Virus record (IMG/VR): IMGVR_UViG_3300028833_000053
Strand: one strand, 5' to 3'
Source: a virus
Taxonomy: Duplodnaviria > Caudoviricetes
DNA length: 64,000 nt
The translations under genes were made by a program, and so were the position numbers. Position 1 is the first letter of the stretch, and the number at the start of each line of letters is the position of its first letter. Below, in pieces: positions 1,350-51,775 of this stretch. The notes beneath the pieces are model-generated. The model searched no databases. It saw nothing but the letters and a program-made list of their open reading frames with translations, and was not told where the DNA came from.

Positions 1350-2026
1350 AACTTTCAAAACAGGTGTTAGACACGCTTCGTAGAAACTTTGCCATGAGGT
1401 TTATGGCAAAGCATCCTTTGATAATAGGAAACAATTGCCTTTCATCATATGTCTATTCTTGTTCCCAATCCCAATTCAATACCCCATTTGTATGGTCTGT
1501 TGTTTCCCCCAAAGACATGTTGTTTTTGATGGACAACTTCTGGAACATTGACTTCAATGACGTGGAGTTTAGTTTGGTATAGCAAACAACATAGATTTTT
1601 AGTAAAGAATATGTAAAAGCATGTATAAACAAAAAAGTGGATATACATTTCATACACTATATTACACACATTGAAGGTAAAGGAACTAGAAACAACTTGG
1701 TTTCGGATGAAATACTTGACATAGCCAAGGAAAAATATTTTAACCGTTTGCAAAGAATGATGCAAATGAAGGGAAATGCAGATCCCTTTTTCATGGTCTA
1801 CGTTAATTCTTCTGAAGATATGAAACTTGAAGGGTTTGAAAATGCCATACACGAAATGAAGAATAGAAAAGATGTCCATATAATATATCAAAGAACAGAT
1901 AAATCGGACAATACATTCAAGGATGATTATTCAAACCTGTTCATATATGACAGGAAGAAAAAAACCAGAATCCAAGAAGGTATGTTGTATACTTTATTGG
2001 AATACTTGAACGATCAATGCAATTGA
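1346..2026 (+). CDS. DUF1919-like exopolysaccharide biosynthesis protein (2 in-frame TAG)
   Basis: IIGNNC..Y...FNTPF motif, IHFIHY and Y..RL.RM; fragments 1346-1582 and 1637-2026 are in one frame separated only by TAGs. Confidence 0.7.
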
Positions 2027-2035
2027 GAAAAAACA

Positions 2036-2896
2036 ATGTCAAAAAAGAGGAATAAGTTCATCCGCTGGGTTTCCCAATTGAAAATATGCACCTTGATGAC
2101 CAAAGAGGATATTAGGGAGGCTGAAAATTTCTACGAGAATAAATAGGGCAGGGAAGAAATAACCATCTGCATGGCTACACATCCTCCAAAGGGAATATTG
2201 TGGAAAAACGCATATTCGGATTTACGAGAACAATGCGATAGGTTTATCCTGGTTCTCGGCGGCGACTACTGCATCAATGGAATTCCGGATGGGTTTCTTG
2301 ACGATAACCATAAACGCGACATTGAATCGGGAAAATTGAAGATTGTCATTGCCGGAAAGGACGGACTTCCAAAAGACAAGGGATGCCAGAACAAGTTCAT
2401 GTTCTATGGTGATTTTCCAGGTTACTACTGCACATTTGACGATGACTTCAGATGGTCGAAGAATTGCGTATATCAATTGATTCAAAAATACGAAGCATAC
2501 AAGAGAAAAGCCATCGTATCCTTTCTTGGATTTAGATATTCAACGAAAAATGGGAAGATAAATACCAAAAAGAAACATCCTGTTCATTGCATTAGATGCC
2601 ATTTAGACTAGCCTTGCCACATAATAGGTGGTGGTTGTTCCGTGTCAAGACCAATTGACTTCAATTTGACGAAAAACGAATTCCTAGATTAGCCTAAAAA
2701 CATGGGTGATGACGAAATTCTGGCTTTGTGGGCATAGCGGAACAATGTGCCATTGATTGCTGTAGACAACACCCATTGTTTAATTGAATCCCAGAAATAC
2801 GATATCAAAATAGCTCTTTGTTACATTCACCGACTTGACGACCATAGGTTCAAGGTATTAAACACATATTCAAACTGGCATTTGGTTACGCCTTGA
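2036..2896 (+). CDS. GT-A fold glycosyltransferase (4 in-frame TAG)
   Basis: ICMATHP, KF..Y..TFDDDF, IIGGGCS, DDEILALW; continuous frame from ATG 2036 to TGA 2896; paralogous to 11974-12639. Confidence 0.75.
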
Positions 2897-2901
2897 TGAC
2901 G

Positions 2902-4017
2902 TTAACTTCCACTCCCGCTACTGGAACCACTGCTTCCTGAATCTCCATGAAGTACAAGAAGTCCGTCAATGCAGTAGCAAATCACTGGGAAGGTATTTCC
3001 TGACGAAGATACACCCAAATACCAAATAGGGGCATTCTATGCCACGTCGGCTCTTGTTATTCCATCAAACCAAACCTCGGTAAGATTATCACATCCGTAG
3101 AATGCCCCCATCCCAATGTCACTCGGAGACGATATTGAATCGGGTATGGCTAATCTTTGCATATTATAAAAGCCTCTAAATACGCCGTCATCAAGATAAG
3201 TTACGGAAGTTCCTATTTGCATTTCCTCAATGTCCTGTTCATATACGGGAAAATAAGCACTCCATGTATTATAACTTACCATTCCTTCAATTAAAGCTGA
3301 ATAACTAACATGCCCTACAGTAGTTAGTGAAGTTTCACGCCCGCGTATTTCCTACGCGCTTCCTTCACTACTGCTTCCCTCACCACCATTCAACACAAGC
3401 AACCCGTCCTGACAATGCACGATTACGGGCCATGTTGCCCAGCCTGAGATTTCAAATCCCAATCCCCAATCAGACCCGCCATGAATGGAAACATAATCAC
3501 GCTGGAAACTCTCCATCCACACTTCTTGTAAACCATTACATCCCCAAAACGCCCCCAACCCTATTGATGGTGTACTATCTATTGTCACGCTCGTCAGACC
3601 TCTGCAGCCGGAGAACGCAGACTCCCCGATGCTCGTCACGCTGTTAGGAATCGTCACGCTAGTCAGGCCGCTGCAATCGGTGAACGCATTCCACCCGATG
3701 CTCGTAACGCTATTGGGTATTGTCATGCTCGTAAGCCCACTGCAATTGTAGAACGCCTGATACCTGATGCTCGTCACGGTGTTTCCAACTTCCACTGCAA
3801 CAACATCTGTTCTTGAATGTCCGTCAATGTTGTCTATCTTTGCCTGTGTCAGTTCCCCAGTTATGGCAACGTCGGAATATGCCGCATCCCTTGATTGCAC
3901 ATTTCCGCTTCTAGGTGCAGTCCACCACAGTCGGGTCAAAGCCGGGTCTCTGTAACCATTTGTCATCACGTTGATGCTACCACCAACCAGTTTGTCCACA
4001 GTAATTTTTATTGCCAT
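2902..4017 (-). CDS. BspA-type leucine-rich-repeat protein, two tandem modules (2 in-frame TAG)
   Basis: Repeats [19 protein letters not shown]; both modules end W.LG..T.PVI..C.DGLLVL.G..GSS; TAG at 3352 and 3037, TAA at 2902. Confidence 0.85.
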
Positions 4018-26860: not shown

Positions 26861-28807
26861 TTAACCAAAGGGATTGTCTCCGCCCTCGTCACCACCTGCG
26901 TCATCTCCACCTTCATCGCCTCCAGCTTCATCTCCACCAGCGGCGTCGTCACCACCTTCTTCTCCGCCACCTTCTCCCCCTTCACCATTCTCCTCATCGG
27001 CGGTTGTGACGTTTATCTTGTTGGTGTTGAAAATGCTATGTGCAAGCAGTTCCTCAAGGCTGGACATAGACATTGTCTTCAACTTCGTAATCTGAGAAGC
27101 GTCAATCTCGCCACCCATGTACTTCTCGCCAATGCCCTCAACCATTGCGGCCATGATACCATCAAACAAACGAAGTTGGTTCATTTCGTTTATCTCTGCG
27201 TCAGTCATTCCCAAGATGTTCTTCTGCGCCCAAGTCTTTGACATTTCATCGCGGTCGGCATACTTGGCGTAAAGATCCATCTTCTGTGTGATTTCCTGGT
27301 TGGAAATGAACTTGGAATAGACGTATGGCGGAGTGAATTCAACGTAGAAGTCACTTTCCTTCATCTGGTTCTTCTGCCATATTCCACGCAGCTTCAAATG
27401 GACGATGAACGAGTCTTGCAACGCCTTTGCGAACTTCATTTGAATGCCAAGTTCCATCTTGGAGAAGGAGAATTCCTCTTGCGTGATTTCGGTTGAAGCA
27501 CGGTAGGAATTGGATTCAAGGTTGTCCCAGCGCGTGTATGGAACGCCAAATTGCTTTATGAGACGTTTCAAGAAGAACTTGAGGTCTTCAATCTGGTCGT
27601 ATTGCGCCGTTGATTCAACAGTGGAAACCGTAGTGCCATCGTTTGCGTTGGATTTCGGGAACACCCAGGAATCCAACATGGAACTTGGATTGTAGGTCTT
27701 GCCAATCATGGAATTGTTGGACTGGCGGTCAATCTTCGCAACCTTCTTTTCGGAAAGTTTCTGCGCAAACTTCCTAACATATTCATGCGCAACCTTGTCC
27801 GCCATTCCACCAGTTGCTATGTTGAAGAGAAGTCTCTGCGGTGCCCTCGTAACGCGGAGAATAACCGCGGCGTCCTGCAAGAGAACCAATTGGTAGTACG
27901 CCTGCTTCACGCCCTCAATGATGGAATAGGTCACTCGCCCATTTGGAGATTTCTTGTCATGCGAGAAATACGTTATCTGCGGGAACAGCAAAGGCACAAC
28001 GTTCTGCGCCGAACTGAAATCCAATCCACGGTAGCCATTGGTGTAAATGGTGTTGAATATGGCGGAGTTCTGCGAGTAGTACGCGGACAAAGTGTATTGA
28101 AGTTCCTGTGCGTACTTGTCAAGGTCAAAGTAGATGCCGCAATTCTCGCCAGTAGCCTGGTTGATGAGAATGTCGTAGAAATCGTTTCTCAACCGCTTCA
28201 CGCCTATGATTCCCAAGGACGGAATGTCGTGGTTGATGATGTTTTCCCAGGCAACCTCGCCCTCAATTACATAGGTGCGGATGATGTCCACAATGTTGTT
28301 GCGGATGTCAAACAACTTGATGAAGTTGGAAAACTCCTTCTAAATGAGTTCCTGTTGCTGTGGCGTTATCTTGTCGGAAATGTCCTCGGAGAAATTCAAT
28401 CGTATGAACTCTCCAGTAGATGACACCGTAAGGAAGTCGGACGCGATTTCGTTTATGCACCAGTTGCACTCGGGGAATTCAGAAATGGCGCGGTACTGCC
28501 AAAGACGTTGGCACTTGTCCGTTATGAGGGGAATGTAGTTGTGGTTGAACTCGTCTGAGACGTAGCCAAAGAACGCCGTGGAAATTCCAGGATTCTGCAG
28601 GGACACGATACCCTGCTTCTCCACAATCTTTTCAATCTTTGAGGTATAGGACTTGAAAGTCTCGAAGTTACGGTTCTATGCGAGAATCTATATCCTGTCC
28701 TCTCCCTCTGGTCCGACGTTTCCCGCGCCCTACGTGTTAAGCTTGTTCATTCTGTCCACGGGGCTCGCGGATGCAGTCAATACGCTATGGTTGTTGTTGT
28801 TCGCCAT
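26861..28807 (-). CDS. Portal protein (T4 gp20-like; 4 in-frame TAG)
   Basis: YR.ISEFPE...INEI, YVIEG, QL.LLQDAAVILR.TRAPQR..F, IEDL.FF..L...GVP; late motif at 28839-28846. Confidence 0.92.
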
Positions 28808-47070: not shown

Positions 47071-48243
47071 TCACAGCCCCAAAGCCTCCACCAAACGAGA
47101 CGTGAGCATCTTGTCAACGTACTCCTGCGCAGAGCGCACCATAGACTCTTCCTTCTTGGTCTTCGCGTAGACTGAATCAAAGTAGGCGAACGCGAACCCG
47201 GAATACGGACGGATGGTGTTGATGGTGAACACCCACTTGGCGAAGTTCTTCTTGGTGATGGTGTCCCATTCCACCTCCATCAGCTTGTCAATGGCCTCCT
47301 TCACATCCTCCAGATCCTTTACATAGGCATCGTACTTTGCCTTTACCACGTCAAATGCAGCCTTGAACTGGGGGAAGTACACGATGTACTCCGACACCTC
47401 GTTGGCGCGGAGAATCTCCAACACGCGGGTCGGAGACCACACGCCATTGCCAGCCATGTAGTGAAGCTGGACGTAGCGCGGCGACTTCACCTTCACGCGG
47501 TTGAAGTTGGCATCCACCACCACGTATCCCTCCTCATCCTCGGGAAGAATCTTCGCCGCCTCAACGCACTGGTCAATGTTGTGGATGGGGTAGATCTTGG
47601 GCGTGTCGAAAATCTCCGCAAGGGGATGGTCGCCGAAGAACGTTTCCTTGCAAGAAACGTTGTCGCGGACGCCAATGAAGTTCATCTTCGTCTCTTCCCA
47701 ACGCACCACCACCTGATTCCAGGGGGACGTAAGCTCAAAGATGTAGGTGAACCCGGGGGCGAACAGACGGGGGAAGTCCTCCGCCTTGATGCCATAATAC
47801 TTGAAGCCCTCCATGACCAACTCGCCAAATGAGTTGAACGGACAACCCACGTTCTCGGGCAAGTTGCACTTGAAAGCGTCAATCACGCCATTCGTGGAAA
47901 TGAGGAAGTTTCCATCGAGGTTCACAATCTTGATGATGGAACCGTCCAGCTTCTGCGTCACATACGCCGTGCGCCAATCCACCTCGGCCATCCAAGGCTC
48001 TCCATAGTTGAAGAACTTGACGAAGGGGAATGAAACGATTTCCAGCGTATTGGCATCCAGAACCAACCCACGGCACTCCTTCACGATGTCAAGGGAGAAG
48101 TCGGAGCGAATCTGGTCGTACTTGAGCAGAATCAAGTCACGTCCAAACACGTTGTCACGCGAAATTGAAATGCAATAGGGCTCCGACGAGAGCAGGCACT
48201 CCCAATCGGAATTTCCACGGATGAACTCTTGAACTTTCAACAT
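47071..48243 (-). CDS. RNA ligase (T4 Rnl1-like)
   Basis: ECRGLV, PFVKFFNYGE, QKLDGS, FELTSP, EGYVV, RVKVKS..Y. Confidence 0.9.
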   Translation of the reverse strand: MLKVQEFIRGNSDWECLLSSEPYCISISRDNVFGRDLILLKYDQIRSDFSLDIVKECRGLVLDANTLEIVSFPFVKFFNYGEPWMAEVDWRTAYVTQKLDGSIIKIVNLDGNFLISTNGVIDAFKCNLPENVGCPFNSFGELVMEGFKYYGIKAEDFPRLFAPGFTYIFELTSPWNQVVVRWEETKMNFIGVRDNVSCKETFFGDHPLAEIFDTPKIYPIHNIDQCVEAAKILPEDEEGYVVVDANFNRVKVKSPRYVQLHYMAGNGVWSPTRVLEILRANEVSEYIVYFPQFKAAFDVVKAKYDAYVKDLEDVKEAIDKLMEVEWDTITKKNFAKWVFTINTIRPYSGFAFAYFDSVYAKTKKEESMVRSAQEYVDKMLTSRLVEALGL

Positions 48244-48913: not shown

Positions 48914-49561
48914 ATGGCTAGTGAAACATATACATAGAACGCATCGAAGGACATTAACTTCAACCTCACGGAAAACACGTTTGAACGTGACTTGGAAGGA
49001 TTGGTGTTTGCGGGATGGAACAAGGACAGCCCCTGGACAAATGAAGTCCAATACACGGATTGTCAAGAAGTTCGCTTCTCCCAAAACACGAAGTTGTACG
49101 CGATTTGGAAAGAACCCGATTTCAACGTGGTGTACAAATTGCCAAATGAAACCGTTGTAAACTGGAGAAACTTCGAGGGTGGTACAATACCAAGCAAGTT
49201 CTTTAGTTCCTTGAATCCATCGGGAAACCCATTACCGGAAGTGGTCAAGATATATAATGGAGTTACAACCATCGCTGAACAATCGTTCTATGATTGCACC
49301 ACGTTGAAAAAAATTGCCATGGCACGTTGCGTAACAACCATAGGAAAAATGGCTTTTATGGGATGCGGCAAATTGACAGAGATGACAATACCAAGTTCGG
49401 TAACGTCCATAGGGCAAAACGCCTTTGGAAGCACAGGGATCAGAACCTTGACATTTGATGGTATGGACAAAGCAACTGTACAGGCTTTGCCAAACTACGG
49501 AAACTGGGGATTGGGTTCAGGATGCAAACTGAAATGCACGGATGGGGATTTAACCGTATAA
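48914..49561 (+). CDS. InlB B-repeat-like + BspA LRR protein (1 in-frame TAG)
   Basis: FAGWN...LYAIW, LRR IPSSVTSIG.NAF, C-terminal WGLG...CTDG; late motif at 48901-48908. Confidence 0.8.
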
Positions 49562-50227: not shown

Positions 50228-50854
50228 ATGGCAATACACATACACACGTTAAATGGTGGAGACATCACCATAACAACTGGCGGTTCTACCCCCCCCCCAC
50301 CTACGGAACATCCCGAAACCAGATTCACACTTCAAGATGGAACCGTGGAGGAATATGACATTGAAGGAACACTTGACTTTCAATGGATGGCTGACAATGA
50401 GTTCGTTGATGTTAATGAATAGGTATGGCTAAAAACCATAACCGCAGTTGACATTGGAGTTGGCAGTCAAGAACATCCTTTGACGAGCATCGGGGAAGGG
50501 ACGTTCATGGGTTGCAGAGGACTTACGAATCTGACGATACCGGATTCCGTGACGAGCATCGAGGATCAAGCGTTCTACGGTTGCAGTGGTCTTACGAGCG
50601 TGACGATAGGCAGTGGCGTTACGTACATCGGGTGGGAGACGTTCGCCGTATGCAGCGGTCTTACGAGCATGACATTCAACAACTTTGACGTTTCAACTAC
50701 AAAAACCGAAATAACAAAGAGTTATATTTTAGGAACAGACTTCTATGATGAAAACTGGAATCGGATTGAAAAGACCATCCGTGTCAACTGCACAGATGGC
50801 TCGTTTGACATGACATTTGGAACAGACAGTTCAATAACATTCACAGACCTTTAA
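50228..50854 (+). CDS. BspA-type LRR protein (1 in-frame TAG)
   Basis: N-terminus MAI.I..L.GG.I shared with the gene starting at 4017; LRRs; V.CTDG end. Confidence 0.8.
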
Positions 50855-50925: not shown

Positions 50926-51010
50926 TGGGGCGGGGAATGATGAGGGCTTCTACCCCACCCCCAAGTTTACGACTCCGCTTGCGCGAATGAACTTGGAATA
51001 CTCTCCCCGC
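50926..51010 (-). ncRNA. 85-nt tRNA-like RNA with CCA end (non-cloverleaf)
   Basis: GCGGGGA/TCCCCGC stem + C-CCA; CCAAGTT/AACTTGG stem enclosing a GCAA-tetraloop hairpin; T-arm-like hairpin; same 3' trailer as the neighbouring tRNA. Confidence 0.55.
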
Positions 51011-51046: not shown

Positions 51047-51502
51047 TTATACAGATTTCTTGGTCAACCTGAGCATAATCCATTTCCTGAACCATTCAGG
51101 CTCTTCCTCAACATGCTCGGCAAGTTTCCGTATCCTACGCTTCCCCAACCTTGAATCCAGAAGGGCAAGCATCCGAATGAAGTAGTTCTCGCTTGCAATG
51201 GCTTCGTCAATCGAGAGGACATTGAGGAACTGATGGACATATTTCATGGCTTCTCCCCAGGAATTTCCAACATACCCAGTGTCCCTAATGACATTGTTGG
51301 TTTCGTTGTTCTTCCAGCCCCTCTTTCCAAGTTCAGCCCAGAACCTTGGGTCAGTGCAGAACCAGACTTCTCCATCGACACGAATGGACATTGCCTGTAT
51401 CTCGCTATTGCCATCACGGTACACATTATAATAATATCCAACCCTTCCCCTCAAGTCCTCGGGAAGTCTGCTTTCCAACGTCTGTTTTGTCTTACTCCAC
51501 AT
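51047..51502 (-). CDS. Hypothetical protein
   Basis: MWSKTKQTLE.RL...LRGRV, ALLD.RLGKRR; AGGA RBS. Confidence 0.75.
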   Translation of the reverse strand: MWSKTKQTLESRLPEDLRGRVGYYYNVYRDGNSEIQAMSIRVDGEVWFCTDPRFWAELGKRGWKNNETNNVIRDTGYVGNSWGEAMKYVHQFLNVLSIDEAIASENYFIRMLALLDSRLGKRRIRKLAEHVEEEPEWFRKWIMLRLTKKSV

Positions 51503-51522: not shown

Positions 51523-51611
51523 TGGTAGGGCCGGCGCGACTCGAACGCGCAATGTCCATACGGACGACGGATTAGAAATCCGTTGGATTCTCCAATTCTC
51601 CGCACGACCCC
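51523..51611 (-). tRNA. tRNA with UCU anticodon (nominally Arg) and long variable arm
   Basis: Acceptor GGGGTCG/CGGCCCT-ACCA; anticodon arm ACGGA-TTTCTAA-TCCGT; variable hairpin GTCC-GTAT-GGAC; T arm GCGCG-TTCGAGT-CGCGC. Confidence 0.9.
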
Positions 51612-51619
51612 ATATAAAT

Positions 51620-51740
51620 CCACACCGCTAGGCTTTAGACCAATGGTTCTCCGTCCCCATTGGAAGACTCGCCGCGGTCATTACCCATCGCAAACCAACC
51701 CAATCCGTCAAGGGCAACAGTCTTTACTACCCGGTCACAC
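51620..51740 (-). ncRNA. Candidate structured RNA upstream of the tRNA
   Basis: Lies between a promoter and the tRNA; AAGACT/AGTCTT, CCAATGG/CCATTGG and ACCG/CGGT pairings. Confidence 0.35.
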
Positions 51741-51746
51741 ATAACA

Positions 51747-51775
51747 ATTATACGCCAAAACCAATCAAATGTAAA
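51747..51775 (-). promoter_or_regulatory. Sigma70-type promoter for the RNA cluster
   Basis: TTTACA-17-TATAAT. Confidence 0.65.

Follow-up and report, generated by a model that had tools for sequence, protein, structure and literature searches.

The variable region of a tRNA is a textbook guide to its identity, a long arm being the mark of the leucine, serine, tyrosine and selenocysteine tRNAs. The 64,000-nt stretch of viral DNA analysed here (the window; IMG/VR record IMGVR_UViG_3300028833_000053) carries a tRNA gene that combines such an arm with the anticodon UCU, which raises the question of which amino acid it delivers at AGA codons and where its shape came from. The initial annotation had described an 89-nt tRNA(UCU) on a class II, Leu-like scaffold and had left two readings side by side, a nuclease-evading tRNA-Arg or a tRNA that mis-codes at AGA. 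The gene itself was upheld. The single ARAGORN call in the window is a minus-strand tRNA-Arg(tct) (51523-51611) that measures 89 nt with the CCA counted, and the Rfam model RF00005 scored the local stretch at 44.4 bits (E = 3e-8; gathering score 29). An Rfam run over the whole window at the gathering threshold with default filters reported no tRNA; given the local score, we rejected this miss as evidence against the gene and regard it as a filter artefact. The gene and its parts are placed as follows.

51523..51611, minus strand: tRNA-Arg(UCU), 89 nt including the encoded CCA (ARAGORN; Rfam RF00005, 44.4 bits)
51523-51525, minus strand: encoded CCA
51526, minus strand: discriminator base A73
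51551..51566, minus strand: variable region of 16 nt, namely C, a GUCC-GUAU-GGAC hairpin (4 bp) and AUU
51574..51576, minus strand: anticodon UCU, within the anticodon arm at 51567-51583 (ACGGA-UUUCUAA-UCCGU)
51585..51604, minus strand: linker UGC (51602-51604) and D arm GGAG-AAUUGGAGA-AUCC, with 3 bp plus G13.A22 and A20 in the loop

The acceptor stem has 7 bp, including G1.U72 and U5.G68, and is joined to the D stem by three bases (UGC) where two are usual. The D stem consists of 3 bp (GGA/UCC) adjoined by the G13.A22 mismatch, and its 11-nt loop, AAUUGGAGA, reads A14 A15 U16 U17 G18 G19 A20 G20a A21. It is followed by an anticodon stem of ACGGA/UCCGU around the loop UUUCUAA, and by a T arm of GCGCG-UUCGAGU-CGCGC that leads to A73 and the encoded CCA. 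The variable-region hairpin, with its 4-bp stem and 4-nt loop, has a predicted stability of -5.3 kcal/mol, and the minimum-energy fold returned by RNAfold contains the acceptor, variable and T hairpins. The peculiarities that had first drawn attention to the gene, that is, the 16-nt variable region with a 4-bp hairpin, the 3-bp D stem with a G.A mismatch, A73 and the extra base between the acceptor and D stems, were all found in this cloverleaf. In geometry the gene belongs with class II tRNAs, as its variable region exceeds 10 nt and forms a stem-loop (16 nt) and its D stem is 3 bp long with an unpaired 13:22 position (G13.A22); in isotype it stands apart from the Leu, Ser, Tyr and Sec members of that class, since its anticodon is UCU and AGA behaves as an arginine codon. 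The class I core of a 4-5-nt variable loop and a 4-bp D stem is absent.

The window belongs to one record of 433,895 bp that is rated complete and has direct terminal repeats; its GC content is 46.6%, and we refer to it as G000 (L-numbers below denote local sequence stretches). Because G000 codes for a T4-type portal and a T4 Rnl1-type RNA ligase, it is a jumbo phage; an origin from a plant mitochondrion or an endosymbiont, considered in view of genome size and GC content, was rejected on the strength of the portal, Rnl1, the direct terminal repeats and the tRNA cluster. The genome holds 36 tRNA genes, 34 of them in one cluster that lies 65 kb from tRNA-Arg(UCU). The gene order at the tRNA-Arg(UCU) locus is a 495-aa ORF, a DUF2490 gene, a small ORF, promoter, leader, tRNA, an SF0329-family gene and Rnl1, and the features closest to our argument are these.

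51747..51775, minus strand: sigma-70-like promoter, TTTACA-17-TATAAT (11/12 matches), ~135 nt upstream of the tRNA 5' end
51612-51746, minus strand: leader between promoter and tRNA
51047..51502, minus strand: SF0329 family gene (PF25753), starting 20 nt downstream of CCA
47071..48243, minus strand: T4 Rnl1-type RNA ligase of the tRNA repair ligase family (PF09511, phrog_562), 3.3 kb downstream

The SF0329-family gene is probably co-transcribed with the tRNA. When the 5.7-kb neighbourhood was compared by blastn with 50,697 phage records, no match was obtained. Two further observations concern the surroundings of the gene. A CCA-ended, tRNA-like element of 85 nt lies at window positions 50926-51010 on the minus strand, with an acceptor stem of GCGGGGA/UCCCCGC and no ARAGORN call; its 3' trailer, CCAUUUAACGA, is common to tRNA-Arg(UCU), which suggests a shared 3' processing signal. 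On the plus strand, opposite the tRNA operon, short ORFs at 48992-49561 and 50480-50854 encode BspA-type leucine-rich repeats (PF13306) and may be pieces of one TAG-interrupted gene.

Two complete sister phages allowed the locus to be compared directly. G001 (418 kb) has a portal 95% identical to that of G000, and all five neighbours of its tRNA match the G000 proteins in order; G002 (414 kb) has a portal 89% identical, and its matching neighbours are the 495-aa ORF, the small ORF and Rnl1. A tRNA-adjacent leader of about 30 nt could be aligned in all three phages. We found that the slot of the long-armed gene is filled in both G001 and G002 by a class I tRNA-Arg(UCU) of 76/77 nt, and that the tRNA cluster of G002 contains a 90-nt tRNA-Arg(CCU) of the same design as the long-armed gene of G000. 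The distribution of the two forms is as follows.

G000: UCU tRNA long-armed, CCU tRNA normal
G001: UCU tRNA normal, CCU tRNA normal
G002: UCU tRNA normal, CCU tRNA long-armed

Each of these phages has exactly one UCU and one CCU tRNA, and the long form therefore replaces a normal arginine tRNA one-for-one. The acceptor ends of the long gene in G000 and the normal gene in the same slot of G001 are identical at 11 of 14 positions, which suggests that the inner part of the G000 gene was swapped in.

If the class II body were charged by LeuRS or SerRS, AGA would be read partly or wholly as leucine or serine, and the proteins of the phage should bear the trace. We therefore aligned stop-to-stop ORFs of G000, G001 and G002 by blastp with overlapping frames removed, which gave ~80-89 thousand aligned columns per comparison. 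The residues found opposite AGA codons of G000 were as follows.

G000 AGA against G001 (n=599): Arg 60%, Lys 14%, Ser 4%, Leu <3%
G000 AGA against G002 (n=552): Arg 61%, Lys 10%, Ser <3%, Leu <3%

Arginine was still the leading residue when identical codons were removed (44-50%) and when partners at least two bases apart were considered (28-31%, with lysine second). The AGA profile equals that of CGT, CGA and AGG, and that of AGA in the sister phages with a normal tRNA; control serine and leucine codons aligned with serine and leucine, and AGG in G002, where the CCU tRNA is the long-armed one, also aligned with arginine. AGA is used 7.1 times per 1000 codons in G000, 11.8 in G001 and 8.3 in G002. 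With arginine at 60%, lysine at 10-14%, serine at no more than 4% and leucine below 3%, AGA means arginine in G000 proteins and recoding is therefore unsupported, where the test reports the meaning of AGA in the proteome whichever tRNA, host or phage, delivers it, and low-level mis-charging would be invisible to it. The proposal of mis-coding at AGA thus failed the residue check, as AGA aligns with arginine just as the CGN codons do.

The sequence of the tRNA was next read against published identity sets for tRNA-Arg, tRNA-Leu and others (PMC9976931). In that set the arginine determinants are A20, C35, U36 and A73, and the long-armed tRNA-Arg(UCU) has all four, so that the A20 and C35 pointed out in the initial annotation are joined by U36 and A73. 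A73, A15-U48 and G18G19 are also determinants of E. coli tRNA-Leu, whose synthetase ignores the anticodon (PMC9976931), and the tRNA carries A73, A15 and U48 (a possible A15-U48 pair) and G18G19. These elements, the class II geometry and a Leu/Tyr-like variable arm are what speaks for mis-charging. Position 20a, however, is G here and U in other members of the family described below, not the A needed by LeuRS, and the codon expected to be read as leucine aligns with leucine in less than 3% of cases. As for serine identity, the tRNA has no Ser-oriented arm with G73; its discriminator is A73 and its arm is shorter and set differently from those of the Ser tRNAs, and of the four lineages that share the design three lack the SerRS element G73.

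There are precedents for long arms with anticodons foreign to Leu, Ser and Tyr, namely the nematode nev-tRNAs, which are leucylated in vitro (PMC3333845, PMC4300185), and the bacterial allo-tRNAs (PMC5389517). These are charged with leucine or serine and have varied, drifting anticodons, whereas the G000 tRNA retains the arginine determinants and gives no recoding signal; the branch of allo-tRNAs is 8/4 or 9/3, and that of the G000 tRNA is 7/5. In four divergent lineages the anticodon is kept at UCU or CCU, within the AGR box, which argues for a synthetase that reads the anticodon, that is, ArgRS recognizing C35 and U36, and is not expected of an anticodon-blind enzyme. The one-for-one swap of long for normal arginine tRNAs points the same way. 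Taken with the codon alignments, this makes mis-coding by LeuRS or SerRS very improbable.

We found neither an ArgRS nor a class Ia or class IIa synthetase core in the G000 genome. We accordingly rejected an orthogonal phage synthetase for the long-armed tRNAs, and host enzymes must charge the tRNAs of this phage. The gene's own sigma-70-like promoter would drive transcription, giving a ~135-nt leader, and the transcript would be processed to a CCA-ended tRNA, which host ArgRS would charge through A20, C35, U36 and A73; the product would read AGA, and probably also AGG by wobble, as arginine. On these grounds the gene probably encodes an arginine-accepting tRNA with a class II shape.

Where such a tRNA came from can be read from its inner parts. 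Exact counterparts of both the D loop and the anticodon arm (17 of 17 bases) occur in class I tRNA-Arg(UCU) genes of more than twenty viral contigs. Part of this similarity arises by construction, as these contigs were retrieved with a pattern of the same motifs; the point that matters is the existence of ordinary class I arginine tRNAs with these parts. An unbiased blastn search against phage records also matched annotated tRNA-Arg genes, those of phiEco32 and Vibrio phage eugene 12A10. The class I tRNA-Arg(UCU) genes of these phages and of the sister phages share with the G000 tRNA the ACGGA-UUUCUAA-UCCGU arm, the AAUUGGA-A loop, A20, A/G73 and CCA, and those of the sister phages also share its genomic slot and tRNA-adjacent leader. 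They differ from it in having a 4-5-nt variable loop, a C-G pair at 13:22 and a 2-base linker, where the G000 tRNA has 16 nt, G.A and 3 bases. The G000 tRNA also resembles class II Leu and Tyr tRNAs of bacteria and phages, with which it has in common the 3-bp D stem, a non-Watson-Crick 13:22, an 11-nt D loop, the layout of the variable region and A73; it is set apart from them by UCU, A20, G20a and its Arg-type D loop and anticodon arm. The Leu-like class II scaffold of the initial annotation therefore stands for the geometry, which is Leu/Tyr-like, and not for the D loop and anticodon arm, which are those of a class I tRNA-Arg.

Two other origins were considered. A converted tRNA-Leu was rejected by sequence, since class I phage tRNA-Arg(UCU) genes have the same D loop and the same full anticodon arm of 17 nt. 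The same blastn search also matched the tRNA-Ser(GCU) of Streptomyces phages. This tRNA likewise has a linker of 3 nt, and its D loop and anticodon arm are similar; a G34-to-U change is therefore conceivable and would lend the mis-coding reading some support. Descent from tRNA-Ser(GCU) is nevertheless less likely than descent from tRNA-Arg, in view of A73, the codon data, and a D loop and anticodon arm identical to those of arginine tRNAs. The arm also points away from serine: among the tRNAs that we collected, a geometry of one unpaired base, 3-5 bp and 2-3 unpaired bases is Leu/Tyr-like and unlike Ser, whose members had a 4-6-bp stem with 0-3 (nearly all 0-2) unpaired bases on the 3' side, compared with 4 bp and 3 unpaired bases here. 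In the viral contig L068, which shares the design, the arm resembles that of a co-resident tRNA-Leu. An ordinary class I phage tRNA-Arg(UCU) is thus the probable ancestor, and its rebuilding to class II involved a hairpin placed in the variable region, a 13:22 pair opened to G.A and an extra base before the D stem. Judged from sequence comparison, the gene is probably a working phage tRNA-Arg that descends from class I, has been rebuilt to class II geometry and reads AGA as arginine.

The design recurs beyond G000. It was found in four lineages: G000, G002, the IMG/VR contig L068, where a pattern scan revealed a 90-nt long-armed tRNA-Arg(UCU) with G73, and eight estuarine/marine metagenome contigs, in which a looser, gapped pattern recovered an 88-nt version. 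L084, the one marine contig examined, carries rIIB and a clamp loader and is T4-like. All members have a D arm with a 3-bp stem, an unpaired 13:22 and the AAUUGGA-A loop with A20, and a variable region made of one C, a 3-5-bp stem and then AU(U); the UGC linker occurs in all except G002, and the G.A mismatch is also present in L068 and the marine members. The possibility, raised at the outset, that this architecture is common among related tRNA-Arg genes therefore holds in that it recurs in four phage lineages, and fails in that the closest relatives at this locus are class I.

Scans of cellular genomes and cultured phages gave a different picture. Neither the strict nor the looser pattern found a long-armed tRNA-Arg in one genome each of 185,579 bacterial and archaeal species. 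Searches with blastn found nothing in E. coli genomes and only partial tRNA matches in 50,697 phage records, with the arginine version in no cultured-phage record. Our initial scans of metagenomes and genomes, in which CGTC had to follow the anticodon arm, and a search of viral contigs for the exact anticodon arm plus variable arm also found nothing, and matches to the pattern GGATTYCTAATCCNNCGTCC in L080 and L081 were rejected as chance occurrences inside coding DNA. The long-armed tRNA-Arg genes are thus a small tRNA family known from viral and metagenome contigs and unseen among the cellular genomes scanned.

Given a functional tRNA-Arg, the arm itself could be a neutral insertion in a region with which neither ArgRS nor EF-Tu nor the ribosome makes contact, and be tolerated for that reason. 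Sister phages thrive with the normal form, and variable-region lengths in these phages shift in both directions, with long Thr, Asn, Pro, Ile, Cys and CUA tRNAs and four short tRNA-Leu genes. Against this, compensatory double changes affect 14 of 22 core pairs of the family, and the variable stems (GUCC/GGAC, GUCCC/GGGAC, GUC/GAC and GAGU/ACUC) differ from one another by compensatory changes, the latter read from per-sequence folds, as the MAFFT/RNAalifold consensus misaligned the arms and lacked the variable stem. Because of these changes in core pairs and variable stems, the hairpin appears to be under selection; it has been kept with compensatory changes in both rumen and marine phages, and it is accompanied by co-adapted changes in the D stem and linker. 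Furthermore, the long-armed Thr(UGU) tRNAs of G000 and G002 have near-identical bodies and differing arms that both still fold as hairpins. We therefore consider a neutral arm a real possibility that falls somewhat short of an even chance.

A further reading removes the RNA from translation altogether: it might act as a decoy or sponge on a host enzyme that cuts or modifies tRNAs, serve the operon as a processing or regulatory element, or be a gene copy in decay. It would account for the isolation of tRNA-Arg(UCU) 65 kb from the 34-gene cluster, for other tRNA-like RNAs nearby, such as the element at 50926-51010 with the same CCAUUUAACGA trailer, and for the nearby Rnl1-type repair ligase. However, the phage has no other UCU tRNA for its AGA codons, which number 7 in every 1000, the canonical anticodon loop, T loop, CCA and all other translation features of the gene are intact, every stem shows compensatory changes within the conserved family, and in the sister phages a normal tRNA-Arg(UCU) fills the slot. 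A role outside translation is hence improbable, and a translating tRNA-Arg is the reading that we carry forward.

This tRNA is not alone in its shape. In G000, long arms are also present in Thr(CGU) and Thr(UGU) (91 nt), in Asn(GUU) (88 nt) and in a Gln-like CUA suppressor, and Thr(GGU) has an 11-nt variable loop; four of its tRNA-Leu genes (CAG, CAA twice and GAG) have 5-nt class I variable loops. Part of the cluster is placed as follows.

310000-324000 of G000: stretch L093 of the tRNA cluster, with Thr, Asn and short tRNA-Leu genes

The annotation of Streptomyces phage Yaboi (L091) includes a comparably short tRNA-Leu(CAA). A long Pro(UGG) occurs in G001 and a long Cys in other viral contigs, and the IMG/VR contigs L054, L055, L059 and L062 carry a tRNA-Ile(UAU) that is 93-94 nt long and whose 22-nt variable region is conserved. 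The long-armed tRNA-Asn of G000 matches, over 92% of its length, phiKZ-group genes annotated plainly as tRNA-Asn. The tRNA-Asn(GUU) of phiKZ-like and T5-like phages is, like the G000 tRNA-Arg, a class I isotype with a conserved extra hairpin, and differs from it in isotype. The same cluster contains a 97-nt tRNA-like gene at L093:6585-6681 (G000 316584-316680, minus strand) that has 8 bp in its acceptor stem, a long variable arm and only 6 nt in its anticodon loop, and for which ARAGORN gives the 2-base anticodon 'tt'; another tRNA with a 6-nt anticodon loop lies at 367853-367926 of G002.

The CUA tRNA touches on the coding of the phage at large. When TAG is read through, ORFs of G000 extend to as many as 4,835 codons and contain about 12 TAGs in frame each. 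In the portal gene (26861-28660, minus strand) a TAG lies in frame at 28340-28342, at the position of a glutamine in G001, and genome-wide TAG aligns mostly with glutamine (26-29%). TAG is a sense codon in G000, and its meaning is probably glutamine. The amber-suppressor tRNA(CUA) itself (L094; G000 410487-410576, minus strand) is 90 nt long with a long variable arm, and its U1:A72 and A73 are Gln-like; its counterpart in G001 has 77 nt and is without the arm.

What, then, might the arm of tRNA-Arg(UCU) be for? The nucleases of several tRNA-targeting defences have published substrates. Lys(UUU), Thr(UGU), Thr(CGU) and Asn(GUU) are the known targets of PARIS AriB and P2-OLD. The AriB cut falls at 40/41 and follows a U36-A-A-U-C motif, that of P2-OLD lies in the anticodon stem of Thr(UGU), Lys and Asn (PMC12445682), and that of Septu in the variable loop of tRNA-Tyr (PMC13096335). 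The AriB/P2-OLD target set overlaps strikingly with the long-armed set of G000, and tRNA-Arg(UCU) carries an AriB-type motif (U36-A-A-U-C-C). An enrichment of long arms among ANN-decoding tRNAs was weak, both in G000 (5/12 vs 1/17, p = 0.056) and over the three phages, whose data are non-independent (p = 0.025); overall p was ~0.02-0.07. In each of the three jumbo phages (G000, G001 and G002) an Rnl1-type ligase is found at a distance of 1.7-3.3 kb from tRNA-Arg(UCU), and in the distantly related L068 the ligase (2003-3112), 27% identical to that of G000, begins 43 nt downstream of the long-armed tRNA-Arg.

Together, the set of long-armed tRNAs, the known nuclease targets and the nearby ligase make escape from tRNA-targeting defences a reasonable hypothesis. 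The covarying extra arm may have been selected for an altered tRNA shape near the 3' strand of the anticodon stem. We propose, tentatively, that this change of shape might let the tRNA escape a host tRNA-targeting enzyme, or might distinguish it from the host tRNA. In its more specific form, which we likewise put forward as a doubtful but definite suggestion, the arm would be a counter-defence that renders ANN-decoding phage tRNAs, here Arg(UCU/CCU), Thr, Asn and Ile(UAU), poor substrates for Toprim-type or other anticodon-stem or variable-loop nucleases while leaving them chargeable.

Our literature searches found no description of a long-armed tRNA-Arg, nor of long-armed class I tRNAs, in phages. 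The rule that a long arm means Leu, Ser, Tyr or Sec fails in phages, where an arginine tRNA has a conserved arm and the same genomes hold Thr, Asn and Gln-like amber-suppressor tRNAs with long arms together with leucine tRNAs that have lost theirs. What we describe is an unusual tRNA shape and not a change of the genetic code, and isotype calls or code inference that lean on tRNA shape can mislead in phages. Long-armed class I tRNAs may also be under-called by filtered pipelines, as default Rfam filters missed the gene in G000. ArgRS-type tRNAs appear to tolerate a grafted arm, a property of possible use for orthogonal or tagged tRNAs in synthetic biology. If the arm does protect against tRNA-cutting defences, it would be a new route of escape through the body of the tRNA, where the published route is by substitutions in the anticodon loop and stem.
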